DNA of 64,000 nt, from NCBI GenBank assembly GCA_016869145.1, contig VGEU01000001.1, forward strand, positions 127,237-191,236. Direction: 5' to 3'. Origin of the DNA: Alphaproteobacteria bacterium (GTDB lineage: Bacteria > Pseudomonadota > Alphaproteobacteria > MPNO01 > VGEU01). Below the pieces are notes generated by a model. It was given only the letters and a program-made list of their open reading frames with translations, was not told the origin of the DNA and did no database searches. Below, piece by piece: positions 15,983-42,819 of this stretch; the stretch's first letter is position 1; each line of letters begins with the position of its first letter. Made by a program: the position numbers and the translations under genes.

Positions 15983-18455
15983 ATGACCGCTGTGATCCCC
16001 GTGGTCCTCGCGATCGCGGCCCTGCTGGTGCTGGCGAGCGTGCTTCTGCCGCTTGCCGATCGGCTCAACCTGCCGCATGTCGTGCTCATCGCAGGCCTCG
16101 GCATGGTCATCGGCCTCGGCTCGCTCTGGATCGAGAGCGACGCGCTCGAGGGGATCGTGGGCGATGCCGTTCGCGGCCTCAACAGCCTGCGGCTTCCATC
16201 CGAGGCGTTCCTGTTCGTCTTCCTGCCGATCCTCCTGTTCACGGTCGGGCTGACGAGCGAGGTCCGCCGCCTGTTCGATGACATCGCGGCCGTCCTTCTC
16301 CTCGCGGTCGTCGCCGTCGTCGTCTGCACCGTCTTCGTCGGCGTGTCGCTGTCGCTGGTCGGATAGGCCGGGCTGATCGTCTGTCTCCTCGTCGGATCGA
16401 TCATCGCGACGACCGATCCCGCGGCCGTGGTTGCGACCTTCCGCGATCTCGGCGCGCCGCGGCGGCTGTCGATCCTGGTCGAGGGCGAGAGCCTCTTCAA
16501 CGACGCCGCGGCGATCGCGCTCTTCGCCCTCCTCCTCGACGTCCTGATGGGATCGCGCGAGCCGAGCGTGATCGACGGAACGCTCGCCTTTCTCAAGGGC
16601 TTCCTCGGGGGCATCGCGGTCGGTTACGTAATGGGCCGACTGGTCTCGGCGCTTCTGCCGTCGCTTCGCGAGGCGCTGGTCGCGGAGATCACCGTCTCGG
16701 TCGCGCTCGCCTATTTCTCGTTCATCGTCGGCGAGCATTATCTCCACGTCTCGGGCATCGTCGCCGTCGTCACCGCGGCGCTCACCTTCGCCGTCTACGC
16801 GCCGACGCGGATGACACCCGACAACTGGAACACGCTGGTCGAGACCTGGAAGCAGCTTGAGTTCTGGGCCAACTCACTCATCTTCGTGCTCGCCGCCGTG
16901 CTCGCGGCGCGCGTCCTGAGCGATGTCACGCTCGCCGATCTCGGGCTCCTTGGCATCCTGATCGTCGCCGCCTATGCCGCGCGCGCCTTCACGCTCTACG
17001 TGCTTCTGCCGGGCCTCACGGCGATCCGGGTCACCTAGCCGGTCGCCGGCGCCCATCGCGCAGTGATCCTCTGGGGCGGGCTCCGCGGCGCGGTCACCAT
17101 GGTGCTCGCGCTCGCGGCGGCCGATCACCCAGGCCTCAGCGACGCTCAGCAGCATTTCGTCGGCGTGCTGGCGCTCGGCTTCGTCATCTTCACCCTCTTC
17201 GTCGGCGCCCCGACGCTCCGCCCCCTCCTCCATCTCCTTGGGCTGCACAAGCTGAGCGCGACCGAGGCCGCGCTCCGCGACCGCGTGATGGCGCTGTCGC
17301 GGGGCGAGATCCGCGACCAGCTCGATGTCGTCGCGCGCGACTACGGCCTCGCCCCGCGTCCCGTCGATCAAGCGACCCAGCCGTCGGCGCGCGACAGCGA
17401 GGTCGTGCCCCTCATTCCGGGCGACCGCATCGCGGTCGGCCTTCTCACCCTCGCCACCCGCGAGCGCGACCTCTACTATCTCCACTTCCGCGACCGGACG
17501 ATCTCGCGCCACATGGCGCGCGTTGTGATGTCGGCGTCCGACCATCTGTTCGATCTCGTGAAGACGGGCGGGGTCAAGGGCTATCACCGAGCGGGCAGCG
17601 AGATGGTGCGGCTGTCGCAGCGGCTACGCCTCGGGCTCTGGATTCACCGGCGCACCGGCTGGAGCGATTCGCTGTCAGCGGCGCTCGCCGACCGCTTCGA
17701 GTCGCTCCTCGTCATGCAGCTCGTGCTGCGCGGCCTCGTCGCGTTCAACAACGATTCGATCGCCGCCCTTGTCGGTGCCGAGACCTGCGAGACGCTCCAG
17801 ACGCTCCTCGCGAACGCGCCGAATCCGTCGATACCGCGCTCGCCGCGATCGAGCTCCAGTATCCGCGCTATACGAGCGCGCTCCGCGAGCATCATCTGAA
17901 GCGGGCGGAGATCCGCTTCCAGAGCGATTCCTACCGCCGCAAGCTCGAGGACACGCTGATCAGCCGCGAGGTCTATGGCGATCTGCAGCGAGCGCTCCGC
18001 AAGCGCCACCAGGAGATCGAACGGCGGCCGCCGCTCGATCTCGGGCTCAAGCTGGCCGAGATGGTGGGGCGCGTCCCGAGTTCGCCAATCTCGACGCCGA
18101 TCGCCTCGCGCACGTCGTCCGCCGGCTTCGGCCCCGGCTCGCCGTGCCGGGTGAACGGATCATCGCCAAGGGCGAGCGCGGCGACGAGATGTACTTCATC
18201 GCCTCGGGCGAGGTCGATGTCATCACGCCGTCGGGCCCCATTGCGCTGACGACGGGCGCCTTCTTCGGCGAGATGGCGCTGCTCACGCGCCAGCCGCGCA
18301 ACGCCGACGTCGTCGCATCCGGCTATGTTCAGCTTCTCGTCCTCGAGGGCGGCGATTTCCGGACCCTGATGCGGAGCGACGAGACAATCCGCGCCGAGAT
18401 CGAACGGGTCGTCGCGGAGCGGCGCGGCGGCACGGAGCAGCGCCTCGCCGAGTAG
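15983..18455 (+). pseudogene. CPA1 Na+/H+ antiporter with C-terminal cyclic-nucleotide-binding domain, disrupted
   Basis: Three consecutive same-frame ORFs (15905-16366, 16427-17038, 17063-17899) are separated only by TAG codons at 16364-16366 and 17036-17038. Translation is continuous across both: ...SLVG*AGLIVCLLVGSIIATTDPAAV... and ...AIRVT*PVAGAHRAVILWGGLRGAV.... Two further frame changes occur near 17825 and near 18070 before the cNMP-binding domain (GERIIAKGERGDEMYFIASGEVDV...FFGEMALL). Confidence 0.75.
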
Positions 18456-18460
18456 GGTCG

Positions 18461-19936
18461 TCAGCCGCCGTTCGCTTGCCAGAGCGCGAGGAGCGCCGTC
18501 CGGTCGAGCTTGCCGCGCGCCGTCTTCGGGATCGAGGCGACGATCCGGATCGCGCGCGGGCGACGCGATGCCGGCAGTGCCGCCGCGGAGCGCGCCATGA
18601 GCGCGATGATGTCGATCGTCTTCCCCTCGACCGCGACCACGTAGCTCACCACGTCTTCGCCGAAAATCGGATCGGGCACCCCGATCGTCGCCGCCTCGGC
18701 GACCGACGGATCGGCCGCGAGCACGGCGTCGATCTCGAGCGGCAAGATAGTGACGCCACCCCGGATGATCACGTCCTTGACCCGTCCCGTGATAAAGAGA
18801 TAGCCGTCGGCATCGAACTGGCCGAGATCGCCGGTCCGGATGCGGCGGCCCGGGATTGGCGCGATCGAACCATCGGGCGCGAGAAAGCCGAGACCGATCT
18901 GCGGTCCCGTCACCTCGATCTCGCCCGTCTCGCCCGCCGGCACCGGCGCACCCGCCTCGTCGACGACCCGGACGGTCTGGCGGAAGCCCGGTCGCCCGAC
19001 GCTCCCGATCCGGCGCGCCGCGGGCGGGTTGGCTGCGATGACGCCCGCCTCGGAGGAACCATAATGCTGGACGAGCGGCACGCCATAGGCGGCCTCGCAG
19101 CGCTGGTGCTGGTCCGGCGCGAGCGGCGCCGTGCTCGAGGTGACGAAGCGGACGCTCGCAAGCGCATCGGACCCGACCTCGACCGGGCGCGCCATCAGCA
19201 TGTTGAGGACCGTCGGGACGGCGATCACGACGGTGGGCCAATAGCGCCGCACCCAGTCGAAGAACGCGCTCTGCGAGAAATGCGGCGCGAAGGCGAGACA
19301 GGATCCGGTGAGGAGGAGCGGCGTCAGCGCCATCGCGATCGGCGAGATCCAGGAGAACGACCGGTATTCGAGGATGCAATCGTCCTCGCTCAGGACCCAG
19401 CGCTCGACATAATGCCGTCCCATCGCCTCGAGGCTCGCGTGGCTGTGGACGACCCCCTTCGGCGTTCCGGTCGACCCCGAGGTGAACACCACGAGCGCGG
19501 GATCGTCCGGGTGCCCCGGCGGCACCGAGGTCGGGTGGAGGCCGGCCTCGGCGGGCTCCGCGACCTCGACGAGGCGGGCGATTTCGGGCGCGACGCGCCG
19601 ATACGCCTCGACATGCGCCGGCGGCACGTAGAGGAGCGCCGGGCGAAGCCGACCCACGAGCTCGGCCGCGACCGCGGGCGGAGAATCGCTCGGCACCGCG
19701 GCAAAGCTCGCACCCCGGAGAAGCGTCGCGACAAAGAGAACGATCGTCTCGAGTGTCGTCTCGGCGACAACCGCGACGCGGTCGCCGCGGCCGATGCCGC
19801 GGGCGCGGAGGGTCTCGGCCGTCTCCTCGCTCCACGCCGCGAGCGCGCGCCAGGTAAGATCGCGCCCGCTCTCGATCGCGCGGAGGCAGACCGCATCGGG
19901 CTTCGCGGCCGCCCAGTGGAATAGGAGGTCGCGCAT
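18461..19936 (-). CDS. AMP-dependent acyl-CoA synthetase/ligase
   Basis: AMP-binding signature TSGSTGTPKGV and conserved C-terminal lysine region (PKTARGKLDR). Confidence 0.85.
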   Translation of the reverse strand: MRDLLFHWAAAKPDAVCLRAIESGRDLTWRALAAWSEETAETLRARGIGRGDRVAVVAETTLETIVLFVATLLRGASFAAVPSDSPPAVAAELVGRLRPALLYVPPAHVEAYRRVAPEIARLVEVAEPAEAGLHPTSVPPGHPDDPALVVFTSGSTGTPKGVVHSHASLEAMGRHYVERWVLSEDDCILEYRSFSWISPIAMALTPLLLTGSCLAFAPHFSQSAFFDWVRRYWPTVVIAVPTVLNMLMARPVEVGSDALASVRFVTSSTAPLAPDQHQRCEAAYGVPLVQHYGSSEAGVIAANPPAARRIGSVGRPGFRQTVRVVDEAGAPVPAGETGEIEVTGPQIGLGFLAPDGSIAPIPGRRIRTGDLGQFDADGYLFITGRVKDVIIRGGVTILPLEIDAVLAADPSVAEAATIGVPDPIFGEDVVSYVVAVEGKTIDIIALMARSAAALPASRRPRAIRIVASIPKTARGKLDRTALLALWQANGG

Positions 19937-19947
19937 CCTCCCTCCGG

Positions 19948-21579
19948 TCAGGCGCGGCTGTCCGTTCCCCGGCGCAGCACATGTCCCGGGAGCGCACCCG
20001 TGTGCTCACCATGATCGATCACGAGCGCGCCGTTCACGACCACCGTCGGGATGCCGGTCGCATAGCGGTGCGGCTCGGCGTAGGTCGCGGTCTCGGCGAC
20101 CGTCGCCGGGTCGAACACCGTGATGTCGGCGCGATAGCCCTCGCGCAGATAGCCGCGATCGACGAGACCGAGCGCGTCCGCCGACGCGCCGGTCATCTTG
20201 CGGATCGCGAGCGCGAGCGGCATGAGTTTCTCGTCCCGCACATAGTGGCCGAGCACCCGCGCGAACGTGCCATAGAAGCGCGGGTGCGGCCGTCCCTGGC
20301 CGGTGATGCCATAGGGCGCGACCGCATTGCCGTCCGAACCGACGAGAACGAAGGGACATTTGAGAATGGTGCGGACGTCGTCCTCCGCGATCGAGGTGAC
20401 GACGACACGCGTCGCCGCCTTGTCGGCGATCACGTAGTCGAAGACCGCGTCGTCGGGGTCGATGCCGCGCTCGGCGGCGATGTCGCCGAGCGTGCGTCCG
20501 GCGTACTGGCTCTGGTTGGGCGAGATCGAGACGCGCACCGCGTCCCACGACGGGATGCGGCCGAAATTGTTGAGCCCCTTGTCGGCGAGCTCGCGCTTGA
20601 CGCGGGCCCGCACCTCGGCCTTGCCGAGGCGATCGATCAGCTCCATGTCGCCGCCCTCCTGGAGCCAGGCCGGCAGAAGGTTGCGGAGCGGGTTGCTCGC
20701 CGCGGTATAGGGATACTGGTCGACGTCGATCTGGACGCCGCGCCGGCGCGCCGCGTCGAGGGTGTCGAGCGCATCCTGGGCGTGGCCCCAGTTCTCCATG
20801 CCGGAGAGCTTGAAGTGGACGATCTGGACGTGCACGCCGACCGCCTCGCCGAAGGCGATCGCCTCGGAGACGGCCTCGTGTACCTTCTCGGATTCGTCGC
20901 GGATGTGGGTGGCGTAGCGCGCCCCGCGCGTCTTGAGGACGCGGCCGAGGACGACGAGCTCCTCCGGTTCGCTGAAGGCGCCGGGCGGGGTGAAGAGGCC
21001 GGAGGAGAGACCGAACGCGCCGGCCTCGAGCGCCTCCTCGAGGAGACGCGTCATGTGCGCGAGCTCGTCCGCCGTCGGCTTTCGCCGCTCCATCCCCATC
21101 GCCATGATGCGGAGCGTGTTGTGGCCGCACAGCATGATCGTGTTGACCGCGAGCGCCGGGTACTCGTCGAGATATTGCGTGAAGGTAGTCTCGCGGAACG
21201 TGAGCCAGGGCGCGCTCGGCGACAGATACTGCCTGAGCGCTTCGACCTTGCCCGGGATGCACGGTGCGACCGAGAAGCCGCAATGGCCGATCACCTCGGT
21301 GGTGACGCCCTGTCGCACCTTGCTCTCGGCCTTGGGATTGAGCGGCAACGTGAAGTCGGAATGGGTCTTGATGTCGATGAAGCCCGGCGCGACGACCTTG
21401 CCGGCGGCGTCGACGATGCGGGCGGCGGGGACGTCGAGACGGGGCGCGATCGCCGCGATCCGCCCGTCGCGGATGCCGATCTCGGCCGGCCGGCCGTCGG
21501 CGCCGGTGCCATCGATCACGCTGCCGCCGCGGATGATGATGTCGAAGTTCAACGCCGCCTCCCTCGCCTTCCCGGCCAC
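19948..21579 (-). CDS. N-acyl-D-amino-acid deacylase (D-aminoacylase) family amidohydrolase
   Basis: 543 aa; PGFIDIKTHSD metal-binding start and amidohydrolase-family C-terminus. Confidence 0.8.
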   Translation of the reverse strand: MAGKAREAALNFDIIIRGGSVIDGTGADGRPAEIGIRDGRIAAIAPRLDVPAARIVDAAGKVVAPGFIDIKTHSDFTLPLNPKAESKVRQGVTTEVIGHCGFSVAPCIPGKVEALRQYLSPSAPWLTFRETTFTQYLDEYPALAVNTIMLCGHNTLRIMAMGMERRKPTADELAHMTRLLEEALEAGAFGLSSGLFTPPGAFSEPEELVVLGRVLKTRGARYATHIRDESEKVHEAVSEAIAFGEAVGVHVQIVHFKLSGMENWGHAQDALDTLDAARRRGVQIDVDQYPYTAASNPLRNLLPAWLQEGGDMELIDRLGKAEVRARVKRELADKGLNNFGRIPSWDAVRVSISPNQSQYAGRTLGDIAAERGIDPDDAVFDYVIADKAATRVVVTSIAEDDVRTILKCPFVLVGSDGNAVAPYGITGQGRPHPRFYGTFARVLGHYVRDEKLMPLALAIRKMTGASADALGLVDRGYLREGYRADITVFDPATVAETATYAEPHRYATGIPTVVVNGALVIDHGEHTGALPGHVLRRGTDSRA

Positions 21580-21634
21580 ATCGGCCCGATTATGGCGGGA
21601 GAGGCGGCGGTATCAAACGCCCGCGTCGGCCCGG

Positions 21635-22171
21635 CTACTGATTGCGGATCTCGATCTTCCGCTGCCGCCGCTGGGCCTCCTCTGACTTAGGCACCGAGAT
21701 GCTGAGGACGCCATTCTTGAAGCTGGCGTCGATCCTGCCGGCATCGATCCCGTCGGGGAGCCGGAACGAGCGCTGGGAGGAGCCGTAGCGACGCTCCGAC
21801 AAGTGATAGTCCTCGTCCTTCTGCTCCTTTTCCTCCGACTTCTCGCCCCGGATCGTCAGCACGTCGTCTACGAGCGAGACCTCGACGTTCTTCTCGTCGA
21901 TACCCGAGAACTCGGCCGTGATCTCGTAGGCCTTTTCCTTCTCGACCACATCGACCGCCGGGACGTTGAATCGTAGGAACGATTCCTGTGCCGCGGCCGG
22001 TGCGCCGGCACGAGCCCGCCGCGCGAACGGCCAGTCCCATGCTCCCACCGACCAGTCGTCGAACAAGCGGTCGACCTCGCGCCGGAACACGTCGAAGGGG
22101 TTCCGCGTCGGCTCGGCGACCGGTGCCGGAGCGCCGCCCTTGACGGCGACCTTTCCGCTTTCCTCTGCCAT
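21635..22171 (-). CDS. Hsp20/alpha-crystallin family small heat-shock protein
   Basis: Alpha-crystallin domain (AYEITAEFSGIDEKNVEVSLVDDVLTIRGEK...GVLSISVPK); ends in TAG. Confidence 0.9.
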   Translation of the reverse strand: MAEESGKVAVKGGAPAPVAEPTRNPFDVFRREVDRLFDDWSVGAWDWPFARRARAGAPAAAQESFLRFNVPAVDVVEKEKAYEITAEFSGIDEKNVEVSLVDDVLTIRGEKSEEKEQKDEDYHLSERRYGSSQRSFRLPDGIDAGRIDASFKNGVLSISVPKSEEAQRRQRKIEIRNQ

Positions 22172-22293
22172 CGGTTACTCCTTTCCTGATGCGGATCCAG
22201 CGCTGTCCGCCGGAAGCATCTGATCGTAGGAACCGGCGGCACCGGATTCCCTAACCTGGATCAATCGGCCGCCGTCGAGAGGAGCCCGAGTCT

Positions 22294-23190
22294 TTGCACC
22301 GCATCGCGACACTTCTCGTGGCTCCGCTTGTTCTCGCGGCGCTCGCCACCGCATGCGCACTCCCGGGAGCGGCACAGACGACATGGACGGGCGCGTCGCG
22401 GGCGAGCGTCACGCGCGAGAGTCCCGACACCTTGGTCACGATCCGGAACGAGACGTTCCGCGCCGTCGACCCTTTCATCGCGGGCCTCGACCAGACGATC
22501 CGCCTCGTCGTCAAGGAGACCGTGGAGACGGTTCAGGCGATCGACGAGAAGGGCGCCCGCCTCGCGCGCGTGATGGTCTCCGCCTGGCGCTTCGGCGACG
22601 ATCCGGCGGCAGCGCCCTTGTGGACAATCACACATCCGGGCAACGCGACCGAGATCGTTCTCGGCGACTTCCTCGCCGTCCATGGCGAGAACACCGACTG
22701 GCGCCATCCGCCGAAGACCCTCTTCGCACTCGGCGACGGCCGCCCGCTCTTCGTCGCGACCGTGCCGTGGGCGAGGTTCTATGTCGCCGGTCCGGGTGCG
22801 GATTCCCGCTACGGTGCCGTCGCCGGCGCCAATGCGACCGAGCTCAGTCGGATGGCCGGGCCGATCGCGCACGCCGTCGCGGTTCTCTCCTATGCCGGAC
22901 GGACGCGTGTGATCGACCAGCTCGTTCTTGCCGCACCCGACGCGACGAGGGCACGCACTCTCCTCGCAGACGAGGAGGAGATGGCGCTCGACTGGATCGA
23001 CCGCGACGGCCGCGCCATCGGACCATTCGAGGACCATGCCGTCGATGGCGCCGGCGCGCCGGCGCTTCGACTTCGTTTCGTCGCCGACGGTGCCGAGATC
23101 CGGGTGCCCATAATGGGTGACCGCCTCGCGCCAGAGCACGCGGGCCTGCCGGCGGGCTTCCTCCTCGTCCGTGCGCCGCCCGGACGATGA
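22294..23190 (+). CDS. hypothetical secreted protein
   Basis: Signal peptide MHRIATLLVAPLVLAALATACA; no recognised domain; 4-bp ATGA overlap with the downstream MFS gene suggests an operon. Confidence 0.5.
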   Translation: MHRIATLLVAPLVLAALATACALPGAAQTTWTGASRASVTRESPDTLVTIRNETFRAVDPFIAGLDQTIRLVVKETVETVQAIDEKGARLARVMVSAWRFGDDPAAAPLWTITHPGNATEIVLGDFLAVHGENTDWRHPPKTLFALGDGRPLFVATVPWARFYVAGPGADSRYGAVAGANATELSRMAGPIAHAVAVLSYAGRTRVIDQLVLAAPDATRARTLLADEEEMALDWIDRDGRAIGPFEDHAVDGAGAPALRLRFVADGAEIRVPIMGDRLAPEHAGLPAGFLLVRAPPGR

Positions 23191-24892: not shown

Positions 24893-24903
24893 AGGAGACG
24901 ACA

Positions 24904-25590: not shown

Positions 25591-25596
25591 GCGCGC

Positions 25597-27093: not shown

Positions 27094-27099
27094 CGGTGC

Positions 27100-27656: not shown

Positions 27657-28661
27657 TCACTGGGCGATGAAGCCCGCGCTCTGCATCAGCTCGCGGTGGC
27701 GCTTCTCCTCGTTCTCGACCCATTTCGCGTAGTCGGGACCGGTCATGAAGGTCGTGTTGAACGCGCCTTCCTGCATGAGCTGCCGCCATTCCGGCGTCTC
27801 GCGCACCTTCTGGAACAGCGACACGTAGTAGGCGACCTGCGCCGGCGTCGCACCGGGCGCCATGAACACGCCGCGCAGCATCAGATACTCGACGTTGATA
27901 CCGGATTCGCGGCAGGTCGGGATGTCGCTCCAGGCCTTGTCGCCCGCGACCTTCTCGGTGACGGAGAGCCGCTTGGAATCGAAGACGCAGAGCGGTCGAA
28001 GCTAGCCCGCGCGCCAATGCGCCACCGCCTCGATCGGGTTGTTGACGGTCGAATTGACGTGCTTGCCGACGAGCTGGACCGCGACGGCGCCGCCGCCCGC
28101 GAACGGCACATAGGCGAACTTCTTGCCGATGATCCGTTCGAGCGCAACGGTGATGATCTGGTCTTCCTGCTTGGAACCGGTGCCCGCCATCTTGAAGGTG
28201 TTGTCCGGCGCGGCCCTCACCGCCTCGATATATTGCTGCGCGGTCTGATAGGGCGATTCGGCGTTGACCCACAGGATGAACTCGTCGAGCGCCAGCATTG
28301 CGACCGGGGTCAGTTCCTTCCAGTTGAAGGGGATCCCGGTGCCTAGCGGTGTCGTGAACAGGTTCGAGAGCGTGATGATCAGCTTGTGCGGATTGCGCGC
28401 CGAGGCCTTGACGTCGAGGAAGCCCTCGCCGCCGGCGCCGCCGGCCTTGTTCACCACCACCATCGACTGCTTCATCAGGTTGTGCTTGCCGATGATGCCC
28501 TGCACGACCCGGGCCATCTGGTCGGCACCGCCGCCGGTGCCGGCGGGCACGATGAACTCGACATTACGGGTCGGCTCCCACGCCTGCGCCGCGGCGGGCG
28601 CGATGGAGGCGTAGGCCGCGATCGACAGGACGGCGGCGAACGTACGAAGGGTCATGAACAT
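27657..28661 (-). pseudogene. tctC: tripartite tricarboxylate transporter substrate-binding protein TctC, interrupted by an in-frame TAG
   Basis: Signal peptide MFMTLRTFAAVLSIAAYASIAPAAAQA; TctC-family sequence continues in frame across the TAG at 28002-28004: ...NPIEAVAHWRAG*LRPLCVFDSKRLSVTEKVAGDKAWSDIPTCRESGINVEYLMLRGVFMAPGATPAQV.... The TAG sits where TctC homologues usually have Lys (AAG). Confidence 0.75.
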
Positions 28662-28871: not shown

Positions 28872-31257
28872 TCAGGCCGACCGGGTGTGCCGCTCGCCTC
28901 CGGTGGCGGGGCCGCCCCCGAGCCCGTCCCACAGGCGCTCATCGCGGAGCGCCCGGCCGACCAGGCGGAAATCGGCCTCGATGCCGTCGATCCGCTCCGA
29001 TACCGCGCCCGCGGCCTCGGGTTCGGCCTCGATCGCCCTGGCGATCGCGGAGAGGCGCCCCGCGCCGACATTGGCGGCCGCGCTCTTGAGGCTGTGCGCG
29101 GCTCGGGCGAGCGCCGCGGTGTCGCGCGCCGAGTGCATGGACCGGAGCGCGGCGATCGACTTCTCCCCTTCGCTCAGGAACAGCGCACAGATACGCCGAG
29201 TCGCCGCCGGGCCGATCGATCGTGCCAGACCACGGAGAACGTCCTCGTCGACGACCGGACCGTCCCCGCGCTCGACCAACTCGATCACCGGCGCGGTTCG
29301 GGTCGCGCTCCGCCCGAGGACGCGCAACAGAACGGCGGCGAGCTGGGACCGATTGAAAGGCTTGGCGACGTAGTCGTCCATGCCGGCGTCACAGGAGCGC
29401 TCGACATCCTCGGCATGGGCGTTGGCGGTGCAGGCGACGATCGGGATCGACGCGCGGCCCGCCTCGAGCGTCCGGATCCGTTGCGTCGCAATGAGGCCGT
29501 CCATCTCCGGCATCTGGATGTCCATCAGGATCAGGTCGTAGTCGGCCGCGCAAACCGCCTCGACCGCTTCGCGGCCGTTCGCGGCGACATCGGCCGCGAT
29601 GCCGTGACGGATGAGCATCTGGGTCGCGACCAACTGGTTGGTCTGGTTGTCCTCCGCGACGAGAACGCGGAGCGTGTGACCACGATTGCGGATCCAGGCG
29701 CGGAGCTTCTCCTCGTCCGTTTCCGCCGCGTCGCCGGATGCCACGCCCACCGGCGCCTCGGTCGGCGCCAGCGCCGCGGTGAACCAGAACCGGCTTCCCG
29801 CCCCGGCTCGCTCGTAACGCCGATCTGGCCTCCCATCTGCTCGACGATGCGCCGCGAGATCGCGAGCCCGAGACCGGTTCCGCCGTGGCGCCGGCTGGTC
29901 AAGGAATCGCCCTGCGCGAACTCCTCGAACAGATGCGCCAACGCCTGGGGCGAAATGCCGAGCCGGTATCGACCACCTCGATCCGGATCCCCGGCGCGCC
30001 CGTGCGGACGGTCGTCGGCGACACGGAGACCGCGACGCGACCCTGATCGGTGCACTTGATCGCATTGCCGACGAGGTTGAGAACGACCTGGCGGAGCCGT
30101 CCCGGGTCGCCGAGCACCGCGCTCGGCGTCTCCGGCGCCGTCGACAGGGTGACGGACAGACCCTTCTCCTCGGCGCGCGGCCGGAGAATGTCGATCGCCT
30201 GCTCGATCGGCGCACGCAGATCGAAGGCGATCCGTTCGAGGTCGCGGCGCCCGGCCTCGCGCTTCGAGAAGTCGAGGACATCGTTCAGGATCCGCATCAA
30301 GGCGTCGGCCGAATCCCGGATCGTCGACGCCGCGCGGCGTTGATCGGCCGCCAGCGGTCCGTCGAGGATCAACCCCGTCATCCCGATGATCCCGTTCATC
30401 GGCGTCCGAATTTCGTGGCTCATCATCGCGAGAAAGGCCGATTTCGACTTCTCGCTGAGCTCGGCCTTTCGCGCCAGCATTTCCGCCTCGCCCCGCGCGG
30501 TCTCGAGCCGCGCGACATGGTCTTCGCGCTCGGCCTCGAGGCGTCGCACGATCTCGCGCACCGCGTAGCCGTAGACCAGGGTCATCAACGCGATCACGAT
30601 CACGAGCGAGCCCGCGATCTCGAGATAGCCGCGAAAGCGGTCGGCGGTCGCGAACTGGTCTTCGAGGATGCTCTCCTGGATGCCGCGGAGCTGGCGCGCC
30701 ATCGCAGCGCTCTCGTCGTGGACCTCTGCGAGGCTGCGATTGAGGACCGTGAGCTGATGCGATGCCGTGGCGCGCTGGGCGCGCTGCATGAACTCGAACA
30801 CGCGCTCGGACTGCTCGAGCACGGCTTCCACGGCGACGTCGATTTGTCCGATATGGGGCCGCACCAGCCGCCCTTGCTCCGGCGACACGGCGAGCCGATC
30901 GATCGCCTCGGTGAATTCACTGAGGCGTTTGGTGAAGACGTCATGCGCCTGGTCGCGCCGGACGCGCTCGCGGTCGACATCGTCGCTCTCGCACACATCG
31001 CTCGCGGGCGACGCCACCCGTTCCGCCGCCCGCTCGATCTCCTCCAGACGGTGGAACGGATCGCCCCACGCCCGGTTGAACTCGACGGAGGCGCGATGGA
31101 GTTCGGCCGTGCGGTGGCCGATCCAGAGTGCCGCCCCGACGGAGACGACGTTGAGGATCGCGACCATATAGAGAACGATGTGCCAGCCCGGCGTACCGCG
31201 CGCGCGTTTCGGGGGCAGATCGGATGGAGAATGGCCGGACGGCATGCGGCGCCTCAA
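28872..31257 (-). pseudogene. hybrid sensor histidine kinase / response regulator with Hpt domain, frameshifted twice
   Basis: HisKA ([11 protein letters not shown]) and the start of HATPase are in frame A (29899-31257). The G2 box ([19 protein letters not shown]) is in frame B (29531-30055). The REC domain ([11 protein letters not shown]...ILMDIQMPEMDG) and Hpt (HSLKSAAANVGA) are in frame C (28872-30281). Frame A to B switches inside the DTGIGI motif, which reads VVDTG / [15 protein letters not shown], consistent with a 1-nt deletion. Frame B to C switches in the cggggcggg run near 29800. Confidence 0.7.
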
Positions 31258-32462: not shown

Positions 32463-33257
32463 ATGACCAAATTGCTCAGCGCACAGGAAGTCGAGCGGTT
32501 CAGGCGGGACGGATACCTGTTCCCTTACCGCGCGATCAGCGAGGCGAAGGCCGCCGACAGCCTGCGCCAGCTCGCGGACTACGAGGCCACGCTCGGCCAC
32601 GAAGCGCAGAACCATGTTCGGTTCAAGTTTCACCTCGTCTTCAACTGGGCGCTCGAGATCGCGCGCAACGAGACCATTCTCGATGCCGTCGAGGATCTGA
32701 TCGGACCCGACATCCTCTTGTTCGCCGGCTCGATCTGGACCAAGAACGCGCACGACCCGCGCTTTGTCGCCTGGCATCAGGACTCCGCCTATTTCGGGCT
32801 CGACCCGCATGATGAAGTGACCGCCTGGGTGGCGATCAGCGACAGCCGGAGCGATAACGGCTGCCTGCGATATCTGCCCCAGTCGCATCACGGCGCCGAC
32901 ATGACCCACATCGAGAAAAAGGGCGACAACAATCTCCTGGTGTTCGGGCAGCGGATCGAAGGCATCGCGGACGAGCGCGGCATCGATGCGGAGCTCGCGC
33001 CGGGTGAATTCACGCTCCATCACGAGCGTACCGCCCATAGCTCGCGCCCCAATGTCTCGGACCGGCGGCGGGTCGGGCTGTCGCTGTTCTATATTCCGGC
33101 GCATGTGCGGTCGACCGGCGCGCGACGGTCTGCCCTTCTCGTTCGCGGCAAGGACAAATACGGCCATTGGGATCCGGATCCCCTGCCGCGCTACGACCTC
33201 GATCCGATCACGTTCGAGCACATGAAAAAGTGCCTGGGAGGCTATCTGCACGGCTGA
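32463..33257 (+). CDS. phytanoyl-CoA dioxygenase (PhyH) family protein
   Basis: PhyH-like sequence (WHQDSAYF, HHERTAHSS). Confidence 0.8.
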   Translation: MTKLLSAQEVERFRRDGYLFPYRAISEAKAADSLRQLADYEATLGHEAQNHVRFKFHLVFNWALEIARNETILDAVEDLIGPDILLFAGSIWTKNAHDPRFVAWHQDSAYFGLDPHDEVTAWVAISDSRSDNGCLRYLPQSHHGADMTHIEKKGDNNLLVFGQRIEGIADERGIDAELAPGEFTLHHERTAHSSRPNVSDRRRVGLSLFYIPAHVRSTGARRSALLVRGKDKYGHWDPDPLPRYDLDPITFEHMKKCLGGYLHG

Positions 33258-33321
33258 GCGTACCCACACGCGTAGCAAGTCGCGTACCCAATCGCACAAA
33301 AGAGATGAGGACACCCAGGGC

Positions 33322-34347: not shown

Positions 34348-34398
34348 TCGCGTGACGACGTCCGATAGGCTCGGTTCGCTGCAAACGAAACGCACCCA

Positions 34399-34926: not shown

Positions 34927-34942
34927 ATGGCGCGGCAGAGCC

Positions 34943-36259: not shown

Positions 36260-36334
36260 CGCGGCGCTTGGGCCAGAGATTCCGGCCGAAATGAATGGAT
36301 CGGCGCGACGGAATGCGCCCGTCCAAGACGCTCT

Positions 36335-37171
36335 CTAGACCGCCGGCCGATCGCCCTTGATCGAACGGCCCTCGAGAAAATCGGACACCAGCGCGTTGAA
36401 GGCCGGGGCCGCCTCGAAATAGGGGCCGTGCCCGGTCTCCGGGATCTCGCGATAGAGCGCCGGCTCGAGGAGCGTGCGCGCGCGGTGACCGACGGCGGGC
36501 GGAATGGCCCGATCCTCCGTGCCCCATATGATCGCGATCGGTTTCTTCGGACGGAGCGCGGCGAGACGGGGCCCGACCACGTGGTCGTCGATCGGTCCTG
36601 CGAGGTAGCGCGCGATCGCCGCGAAGGCGCCGCCGGCGCCGACGGAGTTGTTGATCCGCCATTCCTCCTCGATCCACGCCGGCGTCACCAGCGCGGGATC
36701 ATGGATCACGGTCTTGAGCTTTCGTTCTATCCCCTCGCGCGTGACCGTCGCGAAGCGGCCGCTCAGATTGGCGCACGCCTCCGGTCCCAACGGGCTCATG
36801 CCGATCGTGCCGACCAGCACCAGCGCGGTGACCCGCTCGGGCGCCCGGCACGCCATCTCGCCGGCGATGAATCCCCCGAGCGAGGTGCCGACGAGCGCCG
36901 CGGCACCGACCCTGAGCTCGTCCATCAGCCCGAGCACCCAGCGCGCGAGGTTGGGCACATTGAAGGGGAACCCGTCGCCCTTATCGGCGAAACCGTGACC
37001 CGGGAGATCGAACGCGATCGCACGCCGGCCGGTGGCGGCGATCGGCTCCAGGTTACGCCGCCAGCGATCCGCCCGCGCGCCGAGGCCATGGATGAAAACG
37101 CATGGCGGGCCGCTTCCGACGTCGAGGACGCGGGTTTCCGTCCCATCGAACGCGCATGGATAGGAGATCAT
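36335..37171 (-). CDS. alpha/beta-fold hydrolase
   Basis: HGLG oxyanion motif (VFIHGLGA) and nucleophile elbow GTSLGG; start at MISYPC (the ORF extends further, in a poor frame). Confidence 0.75.
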   Translation of the reverse strand: MISYPCAFDGTETRVLDVGSGPPCVFIHGLGARADRWRRNLEPIAATGRRAIAFDLPGHGFADKGDGFPFNVPNLARWVLGLMDELRVGAAALVGTSLGGFIAGEMACRAPERVTALVLVGTIGMSPLGPEACANLSGRFATVTREGIERKLKTVIHDPALVTPAWIEEEWRINNSVGAGGAFAAIARYLAGPIDDHVVGPRLAALRPKKPIAIIWGTEDRAIPPAVGHRARTLLEPALYREIPETGHGPYFEAAPAFNALVSDFLEGRSIKGDRPAV

Positions 37172-37308
37172 GATCACGCCCCTCCCGGAGTGGCGACCGT
37201 GTCGCCGGTCGGTCCTTCCTTGTTCGACCGAACGGTAGCATGCTACCAAACACGACAAGCCCAGGCTCGCCCGGAGAGCGTCACACCGGCGAGCGAAGGA
37301 GACGAACC

Positions 37309-38319
37309 ATGATCCGTTGCCTCCGTTTCGCCCTCGCCCTCCTCGCCGTGGCGGGCCTCGCCGCCCCCGCGGCCGCACAGCGCGACGTGAAGTTCGTCCT
37401 CGACTGGGCGTTCCAGTCGAACCACGCGTTCTTCACCCTCGCCGACGATACCGGGCTTTTCAACAAAGAAGGGCTCCGCGTCAAGATCGACCGCGGCTAC
37501 GGTTCGGCCGACACCATCAACAAGGTCGCGGCCGGCACCTACGAGTTCGGTTTCGCCGACATGAACCTCCTCGTCGAGTTCAACAGCAAGAACCCCGACA
37601 ACAAGGTCATCGCGGTGTTCGTGAGCCTCGATTCGACGCTCAACGGGATCGTCGCGCTCGCGAAATCGGGCATCCGGACGCCCAAGGACCTCGAGGGCAA
37701 GCGTATCGCCGCCCCGGCCGCCGACAACAGCCGCGTGCTGTTCCCGATCTTCGCCACCGCGAACAAGATCGACGCCGCCTCGATCCGCTGGCTGTCCGTC
37801 CAGCCCAATGTGCGGGACGGGCTCCTCATGAGCGGCGAGGCCGACGCGGTCGCCTCGTTCACGACGACGACCATTCTCGCGCTCGAAGCCCTCGGCATCC
37901 CGCAGAAGGATCTCGTCGTGATGCGCTACGCCGATCTCGGCGTCGACATGTTCGCGACCGCGGTCGTCGTCGCCGAGAAATTCGCCCTGGCCAATCCCGA
38001 TCTCGTGCGCGGCTTCATCCGCGCCGCGGTCGCCGGCACCAAGGCCTCGCTCGCCGATCAGAAGGCGTCCATCGCCTCGATCAAGAAGCGCGACAGCCTG
38101 ATCAAGGAGGACGTGGAGAACAAGCGCTTCGATCTGGTGCGCGATCTCGCCGTCGTCACCCCGTCGGTCAAGGCGAACGGGCTCAGCCATGTCGATCCCG
38201 CGCGTCTTGCACGCACGATCGGTTTCGTCGCGCAGTCGATGGCGGGCGGCGCGACGATCAAGCCGACCGACGTCTTCCGCGGCGACTGGCTGCCGCCGCA
38301 GGCCGACCGCAAGCTCTGA
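37309..38319 (+). CDS. ABC transporter substrate-binding protein (NMT1/SsuA/TauA-like)
   Basis: Signal peptide MIRCLRFALALLAVAGLAAPAAAQ; NitT/TauT-type SBP sequence. Confidence 0.75.
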   Translation: MIRCLRFALALLAVAGLAAPAAAQRDVKFVLDWAFQSNHAFFTLADDTGLFNKEGLRVKIDRGYGSADTINKVAAGTYEFGFADMNLLVEFNSKNPDNKVIAVFVSLDSTLNGIVALAKSGIRTPKDLEGKRIAAPAADNSRVLFPIFATANKIDAASIRWLSVQPNVRDGLLMSGEADAVASFTTTTILALEALGIPQKDLVVMRYADLGVDMFATAVVVAEKFALANPDLVRGFIRAAVAGTKASLADQKASIASIKKRDSLIKEDVENKRFDLVRDLAVVTPSVKANGLSHVDPARLARTIGFVAQSMAGGATIKPTDVFRGDWLPPQADRKL

Positions 38320-38356
38320 TCCGCCGCGAGGCGGAGGCGCACCGAGGAGACCGCCC

Positions 38357-39610
38357 ATGACCGCGAGCGAGCCGCAACCGACCGTCGCGTGGCCCAAGGA
38401 GGGGATCACCCGCATCCCCTACGGGCTCTATTTCGAGCCGGCGATCCACGAGGCGGAGATGCAGCGCATCTTCCGCGGCCCGGTGTGGAATTTCCTCGGG
38501 CTCGATGTCGAGGTGCCGAACCCGGGCGATTACCGTCTCGCCGAGATCGGCGACACCTCGGTCATCCTCGTCCGGAACGGCACGGGCGCGCTTCGCGCCT
38601 TCGTCAATCGCTGCGCCCACAAGGGCACGCAGCTTTTGTACGAGCCGTTCGGCTCGGTGAAGGAGCTGATGTGCATCTACCACAACTGGCTCTACAACCT
38701 CGACGGCGCGCTCCAGAGCGTGCCCTTCGCGAAGGGCCTCAACGGCAAGGGCGGCATGCCGGGCACGTTCTGCCACGCCGATCACGGGCTCACCGCGCTC
38801 CGGGTCGAGACCATCAACGGCCTCGTCTTCGGCACGTTCAGCGACCGCGTCGAGCCGCTCCGCGACTATTTCAGCCCCGTCTTCATCCACAACACCGAGC
38901 GCGTCGCCAACCGGCCGTTCCGGGTCCTCGGCTATTACAGCCAGTGGCTCGATTCCAACTGGAAGCTCTATTGGGAGAACACCTCCGACCCCTATCACGC
39001 GACGATCCTCCACGGCTGGGCGACCAAGCTCAAGCTCAACCGCTTCACGATGGAGGGCGCGATCGAGATGAGCGCCAATGGCTGGCATCATTTCAGCTGG
39101 TCGAAGATGGCGACCGACCAGGGCGGCGAGATCTATGACGGCCGCGAATTCCGCACCGGGACCGCGAACTATAGCGGCTTCGGGCTCAACGACCCCTCGG
39201 TCATCGAGCAGTGGGACGACTACGGCGACGGCATCACGACCGCGATCCAGACCGCGTTCCCGAACTTCGTGCTGCAGCAGATCCACAACACCGTCGCCAC
39301 CCGCACGATCGTCCCGCGCGGGCCGCTCGCCTCCGAGCTCAAGTGGACGATCCTCGGCTACGCCGACGACGACGAGCGCAAGACCGCGATCCGCATCAAG
39401 CAGGGCAACCTCATCGGCCCGTCCGGCTACATCTCGATGGAAGACGGGATGGTCGGCGCCCTCGTCCAGCGCGGCATCGCGGGCGACAAGGACAAGGCGG
39501 CGGTGATCGAGATGGACGGCCGCTCGATCGAGACCATCCGCGGCTCGCGCGCCTCCGAGTGCGGCGTGCGCGGCTTCTACACCGGCTATCGCGCCTTGAT
39601 GGGGCTCTGA
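38357..39610 (+). CDS. Rieske aromatic-ring-hydroxylating dioxygenase alpha subunit
   Basis: Rieske motif CAHKG...CIYHNW and a large catalytic domain; beta subunit gene follows 1 bp downstream. Confidence 0.85.
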   Translation: MTASEPQPTVAWPKEGITRIPYGLYFEPAIHEAEMQRIFRGPVWNFLGLDVEVPNPGDYRLAEIGDTSVILVRNGTGALRAFVNRCAHKGTQLLYEPFGSVKELMCIYHNWLYNLDGALQSVPFAKGLNGKGGMPGTFCHADHGLTALRVETINGLVFGTFSDRVEPLRDYFSPVFIHNTERVANRPFRVLGYYSQWLDSNWKLYWENTSDPYHATILHGWATKLKLNRFTMEGAIEMSANGWHHFSWSKMATDQGGEIYDGREFRTGTANYSGFGLNDPSVIEQWDDYGDGITTAIQTAFPNFVLQQIHNTVATRTIVPRGPLASELKWTILGYADDDERKTAIRIKQGNLIGPSGYISMEDGMVGALVQRGIAGDKDKAAVIEMDGRSIETIRGSRASECGVRGFYTGYRALMGL

Positions 39611-39611
39611 G

Positions 39612-40115
39612 GTGACCGGCGCCGCCACGATCCAGCTCGCCGCCGATCACGCCCACGTGCCGGCACCGATCACCGCGCTCTTCGCCGACTACGCGCACGC
39701 GATCGACGGCGGGCGGATCGAAGATTGGCCCGACTTCTTCACCGATCCCTGCCTCTACAAGATCACGACGCGCGAGAACGTGGAGCGTCGGCTGCCGGCG
39801 GCGATCCTCCTCTGCGACAGCCGCGGCATGCTGCTCGACCGCGTCGCCTCGGTGCGGCGTGCGAACATCTTCGAGCCGCACCGCTACCGTCATTTCGTGA
39901 GCGCGATCCGCGTCACCGAGACCGGCCCGGGCTATATCCGGCTGCAGTCGAACTACCTGATCGTCCGCACCATGGCGAACGGGACCATGGCCGTGTTCTC
40001 GACCGGGGAATATCTCGACAAGGTCGTCCCGGTCGGCGATTCGCCGCGCTTCGCCGAGCGCGTGGTCGTGTGCGATCACAGCGTCATCAACAATCTGATC
40101 GCGCTCCCGATATGA
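39612..40115 (+). CDS. aromatic-ring-hydroxylating dioxygenase beta subunit (SnoaL-like fold)
   Basis: 167 aa with beta-subunit-like sequence (DWPDFFTDPCLYKITTRENVERR); GTG start abutting the alpha stop. Confidence 0.75.
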   Translation: MTGAATIQLAADHAHVPAPITALFADYAHAIDGGRIEDWPDFFTDPCLYKITTRENVERRLPAAILLCDSRGMLLDRVASVRRANIFEPHRYRHFVSAIRVTETGPGYIRLQSNYLIVRTMANGTMAVFSTGEYLDKVVPVGDSPRFAERVVVCDHSVINNLIALPI

Positions 40116-40164
40116 CAACCGACCCGGCACGGCGATCGGGGTCGGCGCGCGTCGGCCCGGAATC

Positions 40165-40929
40165 GTGAAACGCGAGCACGTCTACGCGACCCTCGTCTGC
40201 GTCGCGTTCTTCGTGGTCTGGGAGATCGGCTGCCGCGTTCTCGCCATCCCGAGCTTCATCCTGCCCGCGCCGAGCCGGGCGATCGCCGCCTTGTGGCATT
40301 GGCACGAGGCGATCTTTGAGCACTCGTTCCAGACCTTCTACACGACGGTTGCCGGGTTCCTGATCGCGATGGTGACGGGGCTCGCGTTCGGCGTCGCGCT
40401 CGGCGCGACGGCGACCGTCTATCGGAGCCTCTATCCCCTACTCGTCGGGTTCAACACGGTGCCCAAGGTGGCGCTGGTGCCGCTTCTCGTGATGTGGTTC
40501 GGGATCGGCACCGTGCCCGCGATCATCACCGCGTTCCTGATCGCGTTCTTCCCGATCATGGTCAATGTCGCGACCGGGATCGCGACCGTCGAGCCCGAGC
40601 TCGCCGACGTTCTGCGCGCGCTCGGCGCACGAAAGCGCGAGATCCTGTGGAAGGTTGGCGTGCCGCGCTCGATGCCCTATTTCTTCGCTTCGCTCAAGAT
40701 CTCGATCACCTTCGCCTTCGTCGGCTCGATCGTCTCCGAGAACGTCGCGGCGAACTCAGGCATCGGGCATCTGATGACCGTCGCCTCGGCCCGGTTCGAG
40801 GTCGACCTCGCCTTCGCCGCCCTTCTCGTCATCGCGGCGATGGGCATCTTCATGTATGGCATCACCGCGATCTTCGAGCGCCGGATGACCGGCTGGTCGA
40901 CGCGCGGCATGGACATGGCGGCCGGCTAG
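40165..40929 (+). CDS. ABC transporter permease (NitT/TauT family)
   Basis: Six TM helices and a permease EAA-like loop; GTG start; no ATPase gene adjacent. Confidence 0.8.
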   Translation: MKREHVYATLVCVAFFVVWEIGCRVLAIPSFILPAPSRAIAALWHWHEAIFEHSFQTFYTTVAGFLIAMVTGLAFGVALGATATVYRSLYPLLVGFNTVPKVALVPLLVMWFGIGTVPAIITAFLIAFFPIMVNVATGIATVEPELADVLRALGARKREILWKVGVPRSMPYFFASLKISITFAFVGSIVSENVAANSGIGHLMTVASARFEVDLAFAALLVIAAMGIFMYGITAIFERRMTGWSTRGMDMAAG

Positions 40930-41015
40930 ACCAAGGCGGCGCGAGCCGGCCGCGCTCGCTTGGCTCCGTGGCCGGGCCGTGCGTCCGACGCGTTCTTTTG
41001 GGATGGGCCTGCACC

Positions 41016-41063
41016 GGGCCTTTGGCACGGGCTTGCGCCGGGCCTTTGGCATGGGCTTGCGCC
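41016..41063. repeat. 24-bp tandem duplication gggcctttggca(c/t)gggcttgcgcc x2 upstream of the mltF-like gene
   Basis: Direct read of the sequence; there is a partial third copy just upstream. Confidence 0.6.
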
Positions 41064-41091
41064 GGCACCCCGGTTGACCCATGGTTCGTTG

Positions 41092-42819
41092 ATGTTCCCA
41101 CGACCGCTCCGCTGCCGGCTCGCCGGCCTCCTCGTCCTCTTCGCCATCGCCGCAACCGCCACCGCCGCGCCGGTCCGGGCCCAGGGTGCCGCAGAGGTGC
41201 CGGACGAGGCGGAGCTTCAGGGCGAGGAGCTGATCGCGGCCGCCGCGGAGAGCCTCGACGGCGATCTCCCGGCGATCCGGGCGCGCAACCGCATCCGCTT
41301 CCTCGTCTCCTACACCAAGACGAATTTCGTCTTCGCCGACGGCGCGCTCCGCGGCTTCGAGCACGATCTCGCGAAGCAATACGTCGAATGGCTCGACCGG
41401 TCGCGCCCGCGCGGCACGCCGCCCTTGTCGGTCGTGTTCATCCCGGTCGCCTTCGACGAGCTGATCCCCGCGCTCCGCGCCGGCCGCGGCGACATCATCG
41501 CCGCCAACATGACGGCCACGCCCGCCCGCGCCGCCCTGGTTGGGTTTGCCGCCCCCTATATCGACAATGTGCGCGAGGTCGTGGTGACGACCCGCGACCA
41601 TCCGCCGATCACGAGCCTCGATGCGCTCGCCGACGAGCCGATCGTGGTGCTGCGCGGCTCGAGCTTCGCCGAGCAACTGCGGGCCATCAACGACGATCGC
41701 CGCCGCGCCGGCAAGAAGCCGATCGAGGTCGTCGAGGCGGAGCCAAGCCTGCAGACCGAGGATCTCCTCGAGCTGGTGAGCGCGGGCGTCATCCGCCGCA
41801 CCGTCGCCGACGACCACATCGCCGACGTGTGGGCGGAAGTGCTTCCCAATCTCGCGATCCAGAACGACGTCGCGATCGCCGAGGGCCGGCGCATCGCCTG
41901 GGCGGTGCGGAGCGAGAACACCGCACTCCGCGAGTCGATCAGCGCCTTCGTTGCGACCACCGAGGGGCGCCGGTCGACGGATCGGCGGCGGCTGTTCGCG
42001 AGCTACTATGCCAACACGCGCTGGGTGAAGAACCCGTTCGAGGCGGAGGTCTCGGGCCGCACGCTCGGGCTGATCCGGCATTTCCGCGAGGTCGCGGACC
42101 GGCATCGCTGGGACTGGCTTCTCCTGTTGGCGCAAGGGTTCCAGGAATCCGGGCTCGATCCGGCGGCGCGGAGCCCGGCCGGCGCGGTCGGGATCATGCA
42201 GCTCATGCCGGCGACAGGCGCCGAGCTCGGCGTGCGCAACCTCCTCGATCCGGCCGAGAACATCAGTGGCGGCGGGCGCTATCTCGACCGGCTGCGCAGC
42301 ACCTATTTCAACGACCCCGCGATCGGCGAGACCGATCGGCTCCTGTTCGCGCTCGCGGCCTATAACGCGGGACCGGGCCGGGTCGCCTAGCTTCGCGCGC
42401 TCGCGCAGGCGCGCGGCAACGATCCGAACAAATGGTTCCGTCAGGTCGAGCTCGTCGCGCTCGGTAGCGGGCTCTCCGAGACGGTCCGCTATGTCGGCAA
42501 CATCAACCAGTATTATGTCGCCTACCGGCTCGCCGAGGAGGCGCTCATTCTGCGCCGGCAGCGCGAGGACGCGCTCCTCGGCGCCGGCACCCGGCCCGGC
42601 AGCCCGCGCGCGATCGACGGGGATTCCATTCTTCTGCCGTCGGGCGAGATCGTCCGACTCGTCGACATCGACACGCCCGAGCTCGACTGCCGCTGCCTCA
42701 AGGAATGCGATCTCGCCCGCCGCGCCCACGCCTTCACCCAGGCGCGGGTCGATCTCGGCCTCGGCGCTGTGACGCCGGTCGGCAAGGACCGTTACGGCCG
42801 TTCGCTCGTCCGTATCTAG
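41092..42819 (+). pseudogene. MltF-like lytic transglycosylase (SBP_bac_3 + SLT domains) fused to a C-terminal SNase/thermonuclease-like domain, with an in-frame TAG at 42388-42390
   Basis: Signal peptide MFPRPLRCRLAGLLVLFAIAATATA; SLT catalytic region (LLLAQGFQESGLDP...AAYNAGPGRVA). Translation continues in frame across the TAG into the conserved distal SLT region (*LRALAQARGNDPNKWFRQVELVALG...YVGNINQYYVAYRL). It then runs with no stop and no plausible internal start into an SNase domain (IDGDSILLPSGEIVRLVDIDTPE...GKDRYGRSLVRI), ending at TAG 42817-42819. Downstream of that TAG the frame still looks SNase-like (AGGEDLARSLVRA) until TAA at 42931-42933. Confidence 0.7.

Follow-up and report, generated by a model that had tools for sequence, protein, structure and literature searches.

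The five in-frame TAG codons detected in a genome segment of an uncultured Rhodospirillales-like alphaproteobacterium from the water column of Lake Tanganyika are most likely (probability about 0.88) nonsense mutations in ordinary, fixed pseudogenes, that is, in genes that this lineage no longer needs. The analyzed segment, referred to as the window, comprises the whole stretch of 64,000 nucleotides. All five TAG triplets were read directly in the window sequence, and each of them interrupts a reading frame whose sequence before and after the codon corresponds to full-length homologues:

16364..16366, + strand, in-frame TAG 1 of an antiporter gene (also in Logan contig L010)
17036..17038, + strand, in-frame TAG 2 of the antiporter gene (also in L010)
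28002..28004, - strand, in-frame TAG of tctC (also in contigs L001 and L008)
42388..42390, + strand, in-frame TAG of an MltF-like gene, within the SLT domain (also in L004, L005 and L006)
42817..42819, + strand, in-frame TAG of a staphylococcal-nuclease-like (SNase) remnant (also in L004, L005 and L006)

The triplet at 28002-28004 reads CTA on the forward strand and TAG on the minus strand, which is the strand of tctC. The coordinates given in the earlier note were correct in all cases, as was its statement that the frames remain sensible on both sides of each TAG, since domain matches cross every one of them. The note had assigned the codons to three accessory genes, but four are affected (antiporter, tctC, the MltF-like gene and the SNase remnant), the nuclease stretch being the remnant of a separate gene.

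Disrupted and intact genes of the window

The antiporter locus carries two -1 deletions in addition to its two TAG codons:

15983..18455, + strand, pseudogene of a CPA1 Na+/H+ antiporter with C-terminal cyclic-nucleotide-binding domain (PF00999; four lesions)
17812..17818, + strand, antiporter frameshift 1, -1 deletion (also in three other contigs)
18074..18080, + strand, antiporter frameshift 2, -1 deletion, directly before the cNMP-binding domain

The frame-corrected antiporter comprises 824 amino acids and can be aligned over its entire length with uninterrupted 826-aa homologues containing the PF00999 and PF00027 domains (coverage 100%, best identity 68%); the PF00999 match at residues 18-416 covers both TAG codons. 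Logan gene calls at this locus yielded fragments of 153, 203, 278 and 103 aa. In the closest relatives, represented by contigs L013 and L015 (GyrA 82-83% identical), the orthologue is uninterrupted, with an 826-aa gene in the former and residues 1-612 matched in one frame in the latter, and a tblastn search with the intact L013 orthologue matched the window antiporter in three different frames. The first TAG occupies a loop position that is variable among homologues (G/D/S/E/Q), and the second a position held by E or Q. At the latter site, the closest relative has a GAG codon that is flanked, as in the window, by ACC and by CCG GTC, which points to a single G-to-T change. A 679-aa open reading frame at 17973-20012 on the minus strand was rejected as a wrong-frame artefact of the high GC content, the real gene at this place encoding an AMP-ligase.

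The second group of lesions affects tctC and the adjoining gene of a hybrid sensor kinase:

27657..28661, - strand, tctC pseudogene, periplasmic binding protein of a tricarboxylate transporter (PF03401)
28872..31245, - strand, hybrid histidine kinase pseudogene (HisKA, HATPase_c, REC, Hpt)

The single TAG is the sole lesion of tctC and is crossed by the PF03401 match at residues 51-330. Orthologues of TctC comprise 334-340 aa and are 72-79% identical, and the window protein deviates from just 4 of the 180 columns that are conserved to at least 95%. The site of the TAG is occupied by K in 62 and by Q in 42 of 120 orthologues, and the relative represented by contig L014 has AAG there. The gene was called as two pieces of 219 aa and 74 aa in two JGI samples; the downstream genes tctB and tctA are intact. 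In the hybrid kinase, two -1 deletions (about 29959-29962 and about 29798-29806) fall within the HATPase_c domain, and the JGI gene calls split the locus into products of 448 aa and 292 aa. Restoring the frame recovers a complete HATPase_c match, with profile positions 1-108 of 111 covered. The two frameshifts each that had been proposed for the antiporter and the kinase are genuine, all four being -1 deletions.

The third group consists of the MltF-like gene and the nuclease remnant next to it:

41092..42590, + strand, MltF-like lytic transglycosylase (SBP_bac_3 + SLT), cut by TAG
42600..42930, + strand, staphylococcal-nuclease-like gene remnant (PF00565 positions 2-70 of 107)

The TAG of the MltF-like gene is found at residue 433 of an expected length of about 490-510 (homologues 480-560 aa) and is crossed by the SLT domain at residues 332-441. 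In homologues, this site is occupied by R, K, Y or E. The truncated 432-aa product (P0121) is contained in the NCBI, JGI and Logan data. There is no further stop codon between this TAG and the SNase remnant, and three-frame translation revealed that the remnant is in frame with mltF and without an N-terminus of its own, its C-terminal part being replaced or shifted. The SNase domain match crosses the TAG, which a PDB alignment places opposite the tyrosine of the S. aureus nuclease motif 'AYIYADG'. In a GyrA-based scan of contigs for syntenic mltF loci, the nearest relative (83% GyrA identity) showed a different neighbourhood. A search of 5.8 billion proteins for nearly identical, uninterrupted alleles of the antiporter, MltF and TctC found none.

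Among the housekeeping genes, no internal TAG was present in gyrA, uvrA, secD, trmFO or ssb. The genes gyrA, uvrA, secD and trmFO as well as the DctM permease gene are intact, in agreement with what had been noted for the long housekeeping genes and the TRAP permease. A hydantoinase pair at 2229-6007, considered as a possible frameshift, was rejected and represents two intact genes. Peripheral to the TAG codons, one further gene has an unusual frame:

51049..52575, - strand, 2-hydroxyacid dehydrogenase with an overlong frame extending past the end of its homologues

Alignment with solved homologues ends at residue 318 of 509, and from there the frame runs on for about 190 codons, crosses a terminator-like hairpin and enters the next gene. 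The lost stop of the earlier note is confirmed only in this sense; a stop may have been lost, or a late frameshift may have taken place. No contig was retrieved over this stretch in the comparison with JGI and Logan contigs.

Agreement between assemblies and distribution of the lesions

The TAG codons and indels are real and not sequencing errors. JGI and Logan contigs from several Illumina samples of Lake Tanganyika contain all five TAG codons and all four frameshifts, and the lesions are found again in two or more JGI samples as well as in Logan assemblies of SRA runs. Over 46,109 bases of the window, comparison with the separately assembled contigs of JGI and Logan showed zero mismatches. 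One JGI contig may share its assembly with the source metagenome-assembled genome and is then not fully independent; the Logan assemblies were built separately from raw reads. The Lake Tanganyika data were generated by Illumina HiSeq 2x150 sequencing, with each sample assembled alone (PMC8245535), and the four -1 deletions are located outside long homopolymers. An artefact of sequencing or assembly might be suspected since consensus errors and chimeras occur in metagenome-assembled genomes, and a compensating pair of 1-bp indels indeed distinguishes the window from contig L001 at 32462/32467. In view of identical lesions in separate assemblies, the type of sequencing data and the concentration of lesions in few genes next to clean housekeeping genes, such an artefact is very improbable. 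The earlier argument against uniform sequencing error thus holds in its conclusion. One of its premises, that TAG would not arise from substitution errors, is invalid, and error is excluded by the agreement between separate assemblies.

With respect to their distribution, the lesions are clustered in few genes beyond chance. The probability that 11 randomly placed lesions hit at most six genes is 0.0012, and that of at most five genes being hit by nine lesions is 0.002, which supports the view that the lesions cluster in accessory genes. Altogether, 5-6 of about 56 genes of the window are disrupted, a number that is high for a free-living bacterium as far as this window is concerned.

TAG as a stop codon and the TAG-only pattern

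TAG is a working terminator in this genome segment. Fifteen genes of the window (about 28%) end in TAG, including gyrA and uvrA, and the TAG stops of the genes encoding GlcG-like, CTP-transferase-like and Hsp20 proteins coincide with the last residue of the orthologues within one residue. The assignment of functional TAG stops to glcG and hsp20 was therefore correct, and the view that a global reassignment is unlikely is strengthened by the 15 TAG-terminated genes and by the differing residues at the five sites, which are E/Q, K/Q, R/K/Y/E and Y in homologues, with one site being variable. TAG is not conserved in orthologues, which have sense codons at these positions, GAG and AAG being found in the nearest relatives. 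As had been stated before, the sole tRNA of the window is Lys-UUU; a search with ARAGORN and Rfam detected no tRNA with a CUA anticodon in the 64 kb, and the Rfam scan of the whole window gave nothing else.

Every internal stop is a TAG, and neither TGA nor TAA occurs among the five. This pattern is not beyond chance. About 90% of the third codon positions in the window are G or C (52% C), and these GC-rich third positions make GAG, AAG, TCG and CAG the main one-step precursors of stop codons. TAG is the expected one-step nonsense product, as anticipated in the earlier note. From the codon usage of the window, it should account for 66-70% of one-step nonsense mutations, and the probability of observing TAG in five of five cases is 0.12-0.17. 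A possible CTAG context was rejected: C precedes four of the five TAG codons, but with 52% C at third positions this is not significant. Likewise, the 9-mer CTAGCTTCG is common to the tctC and mltF sites, and a link to restriction sites through AAGCTT was considered and dropped; AAGCTT is only mildly depleted in the window (one observed, 5-8 expected).

A change of the genetic code in this lineage, with TAG either reassigned or encoding pyrrolysine, could be proposed from the TAG-only pattern, but codon usage accounts for this pattern. Pyrrolysine decoding (pylTSBCD, tRNA-Pyl(CUA)) likewise involves in-frame TAG codons with a continuing reading frame. Its usual context is that of the methylamine methyltransferase genes, in which the TAG is found at a conserved position, and such organisms usually make little use of TAG as a terminator. 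In contrast, the window contains TAG in unrelated families, none of which is a methylamine methyltransferase, with sense codons in the orthologues, TAG as a common terminator and no tRNA-CUA. Stop codon reassignments (e.g. TAG to Gln or TGA to Gly/Trp) also yield a single type of stop within reading frames, but there the reassigned codons are distributed throughout conserved genes and match one amino acid, whereas the TAG codons of the window are restricted to genes that show further signs of decay, and the residues opposite them are ordinary and differ (E/Q, K/Q, R/K and Y). Housekeeping genes are without TAG interruption. Terminator usage, with about 28% of the window genes ending in TAG and three of them at the C-termini of orthologues, effectively refutes a code change, which retains hardly any probability.

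Partial amber read-through, by which leaky termination or a naturally occurring suppressor tRNA would provide some full-length TctC and MltF, is also improbable. Both genes have one TAG each in an otherwise well conserved sequence, and TctC read past the TAG comprises exactly 334 aa, as in orthologues; recent pseudogenes are, however, equally expected to look well preserved. A TAG followed by C is known from work in E. coli as a weaker termination context, and C follows three of the five TAG codons. Genuine TAG stops of the 15 genes show the same spread of neighbouring nucleotides, including several TAG-C, and no difference in sequence context was found between in-frame and genuine TAG codons. 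A search of the 100 nt after each TAG for a PYLIS-like structure gave nothing consistent: the folding of the 100 nt past the tctC and mltF codons does not surpass that of ordinary coding sequence, and unusual stability is limited to the SNase site, where it is explained by a 42-nt palindrome. Moreover, no tRNA-CUA is encoded in the window, and three of the five TAG codons are located in genes that are destroyed anyway by frameshifts or truncation. The read-through option of the earlier note is not supported: the antiporter and the SNase remnant carry further lesions beyond suppression, and homologues have differing residues at the five sites. The analysis covered 64 kb, and a suppressor tRNA or pyl genes may lie elsewhere in the genome. 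It is a slim prospect that a natural amber suppressor, for instance a mutant tRNA encoded there, keeps tctC and mltF partly functional and lets TAG alleles persist and become fixed in the wild population.

Probable decay of accessory genes

The other option of the earlier note, relaxed selection, is supported in that the lesions are real and clustered in accessory genes, that TAG is the expected one-step product and that it terminates translation. We infer that the products are non-functional, that the lesions are fixed in the population and that relaxed selection is the cause. Five independent single-base nonsense mutations would have become fixed in dispensable genes, and after the loss of function of a gene or module further disabling mutations could gather without penalty. 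The result would be decay in three small islands, namely the antiporter with two TAG codons and two -1 deletions, tctC and the adjoining hybrid sensor kinase with one TAG and two -1 deletions, and mltF and the adjacent nuclease remnant with two TAG codons and a truncation. TAG would keep its normal meaning and give rise to truncated products. The clustering of the lesions is as expected for decay after the loss of constraint, and some of them are beyond suppression because of the four -1 deletions and because the nuclease lacks its N-terminus and has a shifted C-terminus. For tctC and mltF, with one lesion each, either recent inactivation or a partial usefulness through read-through may apply, between which the sequence alone does not discriminate.

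As in other bacterial pseudogenes that arose by nonsense mutations and small deletions under relaxed selection, conserved domains are broken by in-frame stops and -1 deletions, multiple lesions pile up in one gene, linked neighbours decay together (tctC with the sensor kinase and mltF with the nuclease), relatives have intact full-length orthologues and housekeeping genes are untouched. There is no qualitative difference, although the local density is rather high for a planktonic free-living bacterium.

The finding matters little beyond annotation. The affected genes should be annotated as pseudogenes, as the public record lists the truncated MltF as a protein, and internal stops that are all TAG are by themselves no sign of recoding in a GC-rich genome. 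The sequence is identical across the compared samples, and roughly a tenth of the genes in the window are disrupted; together, these two observations could mean that the organism represents a clonal lineage of small effective population size that is losing accessory functions.

TAG codons, frameshifts and gene remnants

The observation of in-frame TAG codons made in the earlier note was confirmed as a whole. All five triplets are present, and when the open frames between stops were ranked by GC content per codon position, the coding frame proved unbroken through each of them. Each site falls within a Pfam domain match, as listed below together with the homologous residues and the number of separately assembled contigs sharing the TAG.

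In-frame TAG codons of the window
16364-16366: antiporter, PF00999 (Na+/H+ exchanger, residues 18-416); homologues variable (G/D/S/E/Q); one contig
17036-17038: antiporter, same domain match; homologues E or Q, nearest relative GAG with identical flanking codons; one contig
28002-28004, minus strand (CTA on the plus strand): tctC, PF03401 (TctC, residues 51-330); K in 62 and Q in 42 of 120 orthologues, AAG in a relative; two contigs
42388-42390: MltF-like gene, SBP_bac_3 and SLT, TAG at residue 433; homologues R, K, Y or E; three contigs
42817-42819: nuclease stretch, PF00565 (SNase); homologues Tyr; three contigs

The codons had been assigned to three genes; the number is four, since the nuclease stretch counts as a remnant of its own. 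It is devoid of its own N-terminus and shares the frame of the upstream mltF gene with no intervening stop, and SNase-like sequence beyond its TAG apparently continues in another frame only. The tail of the remnant frame contains a near-perfect 42-nt palindrome (42860-42901) with two 21-nt arms that are 95% complementary and not separated by a spacer. The fold of this stretch is unusually stable (z = -3.1 against the coding background), and a second copy was not found elsewhere in the window. The palindrome may represent a terminator or an inserted element replacing the nuclease C-terminus.

Three-frame translations verified the two frameshifts described for the antiporter (~17815 and ~18077) and the two described for the hybrid histidine kinase (~29960 and ~29800), all of which are single-base deletions located outside long homopolymers. 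In a tblastn comparison, the intact 826-aa antiporter orthologue of a relative matched three successive frames of the window with 67-68% identity. Frame correction of the kinase restored the full HisKA, HATPase_c, REC and Hpt architecture, with a HATPase_c match that covers profile positions 1-108 of 111 and spans both junctions. The reported loss of the stop codon in the 2-hydroxyacid dehydrogenase gene held in part: the frame extends ~190 codons past the last residue aligned with solved homologues and crosses a terminator-like hairpin. This hairpin (51500-51600, minus strand; GAGCGGCGGG ... CCCGCCGCTC followed by a T-run) is located inside the extended frame with no in-frame stop ahead of it, and the transcript may therefore end without a stop codon. 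The housekeeping genes gyrA, uvrA, trmFO and secD appear intact, as had been noted, and so does the rest of the window, including ssb, the two hydantoinase genes and the permease genes of the TRAP and Tct systems.

Recurrence of the lesions in Lake Tanganyika metagenomes

Exact-protein look-ups retrieved matching contigs from separately assembled Lake Tanganyika metagenomes, represented by the JGI samples 3300020193 and 3300020200 and the Logan assemblies SRR7990526, SRR7052762 and SRR7053297. Aligned over a total of 46,109 window bases, these contigs showed 0 mismatches and departed from the window only by two 1-bp indels that compensate each other (32462/32467). All five TAG codons and all four frameshifts are present in the contigs (three contigs for each antiporter frameshift, one for each kinase frameshift), and the JGI and Logan gene callers split the genes at the same points. 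The samples were sequenced by Illumina HiSeq 2x150, with one assembly per sample (PMC8245535). Moreover, the probability that 9-11 random, length-proportional lesions hit so few genes is 0.001-0.002. Since the lesions recur in separate per-sample Illumina assemblies and are clustered to this degree, sequencing error is excluded for practical purposes, as the earlier note had argued against uniform error; the same concentration supports its suggestion of relaxed selection.

The indel pair was detected relative to the JGI contig L001 at the start of a PhyH-like gene (32463-33257), where it decides whether an ATG is in the frame of the gene; the Logan contig L004 has the version of the window. 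The comparison of window positions 1-46652 with contigs of several samples yielded zero single-base differences over 46 kb, which suggests that the Lake Tanganyika population is highly homogeneous and may be clonal.

TAG as a stop codon and the question of read-through

TAG terminates 15 genes of the window and TAA none; in a curated set of 37 intact genes, 25 end with TGA and 12 with TAG. The GlcG-like protein and Hsp20, for which genuine TAG termination had been proposed, share the C-terminal end point of their orthologues in relatives to within one residue, as does the TAG-ended CTP-transferase-like protein. Additionally, the homologous residues differ across the five sites, and three of the five TAGs are located in genes that are anyway destroyed by frameshift or truncation. 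The alternative of amber read-through thus found no support. A tRNA-CUA was not found in the 64-kb window, in agreement with the earlier note. Neighbouring bases did not differ between in-frame TAGs and genuine TAG stops, and no downstream RNA structure was consistent over the five sites. Functional read-through of the TAGs in tctC and mltF would be a small residual possibility, favoured by the single lesion and otherwise good preservation of each gene; the same state, however, fits a recent inactivation. Pyrrolysine decoding and stop-codon reassignment were also considered and failed those defining tests that were runnable here.

The exclusive occurrence of TAG was compared with the codon usage of the intact window genes (13,978 codons). 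Under four mutation models, TAG accounts for a predicted 66-70% of one-step nonsense mutations, arising chiefly from GAG, AAG, TCG and CAG, in line with the expectation that TAG is the common product of single-base changes. Since the probability of five TAGs out of five is 0.12-0.17 at this share, the all-TAG pattern accords with the prediction from codon usage. In the window as a whole, the tetranucleotide CTAG shows strong depletion (17 observed versus 75 expected by a Markov model); almost every copy overlaps a stop codon, and 4 of the 17 belong to the in-frame TAG lesions.

Probable gene decay and the genomic neighbourhood

The closest genome found, a Rhodospirillaceae MAG with 83% GyrA identity, contains an intact antiporter gene. 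In L013 and L015, contigs of the closest relatives, the antiporter gene directly adjoins ssb, gyrA and the CTP-transferase-like gene, which are separated in the window (15983-22171 and 44240-48230). Between them lie ~26 kb of accessory genes, comprising Tct genes, the kinase gene, dioxygenase genes, TRAP and ABC transporter genes, mltF and a flp pilin gene, and the majority of the lesions is located there. The region 22294-23190 encodes a 298-aa hypothetical protein with a signal-peptide-like start, whose match to the 540-545-aa orthologues of relatives is confined to their C-terminal half (residues 275-541); the GT87 gene that adjoins these orthologues is absent from the window, where an MFS transporter gene is found instead. 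The ORF 60759-61886, whose Urate_ox_N match is limited to profile positions 172-238 of 295, is possibly divergent or incomplete.

A search among 5.8 billion database proteins for intact, nearly identical alleles found none for the antiporter, MltF or TctC. The antiporter reached 68% with its best match and TctC 78%, whereas MltF matched an identical truncated 432-aa product (100%), followed by matches of at most 49%. Judged from their sequences, the disrupted genes appear to be ordinary pseudogenes that form three small islands of decay: the antiporter gene, tctC with the adjoining sensor kinase gene, and mltF with the nuclease remnant. This pattern matches bacterial gene decay, a phenomenon that is already known; only the share of genes disrupted locally (5-6 of ~56 in the window) and the full sequence identity across samples are mildly notable.
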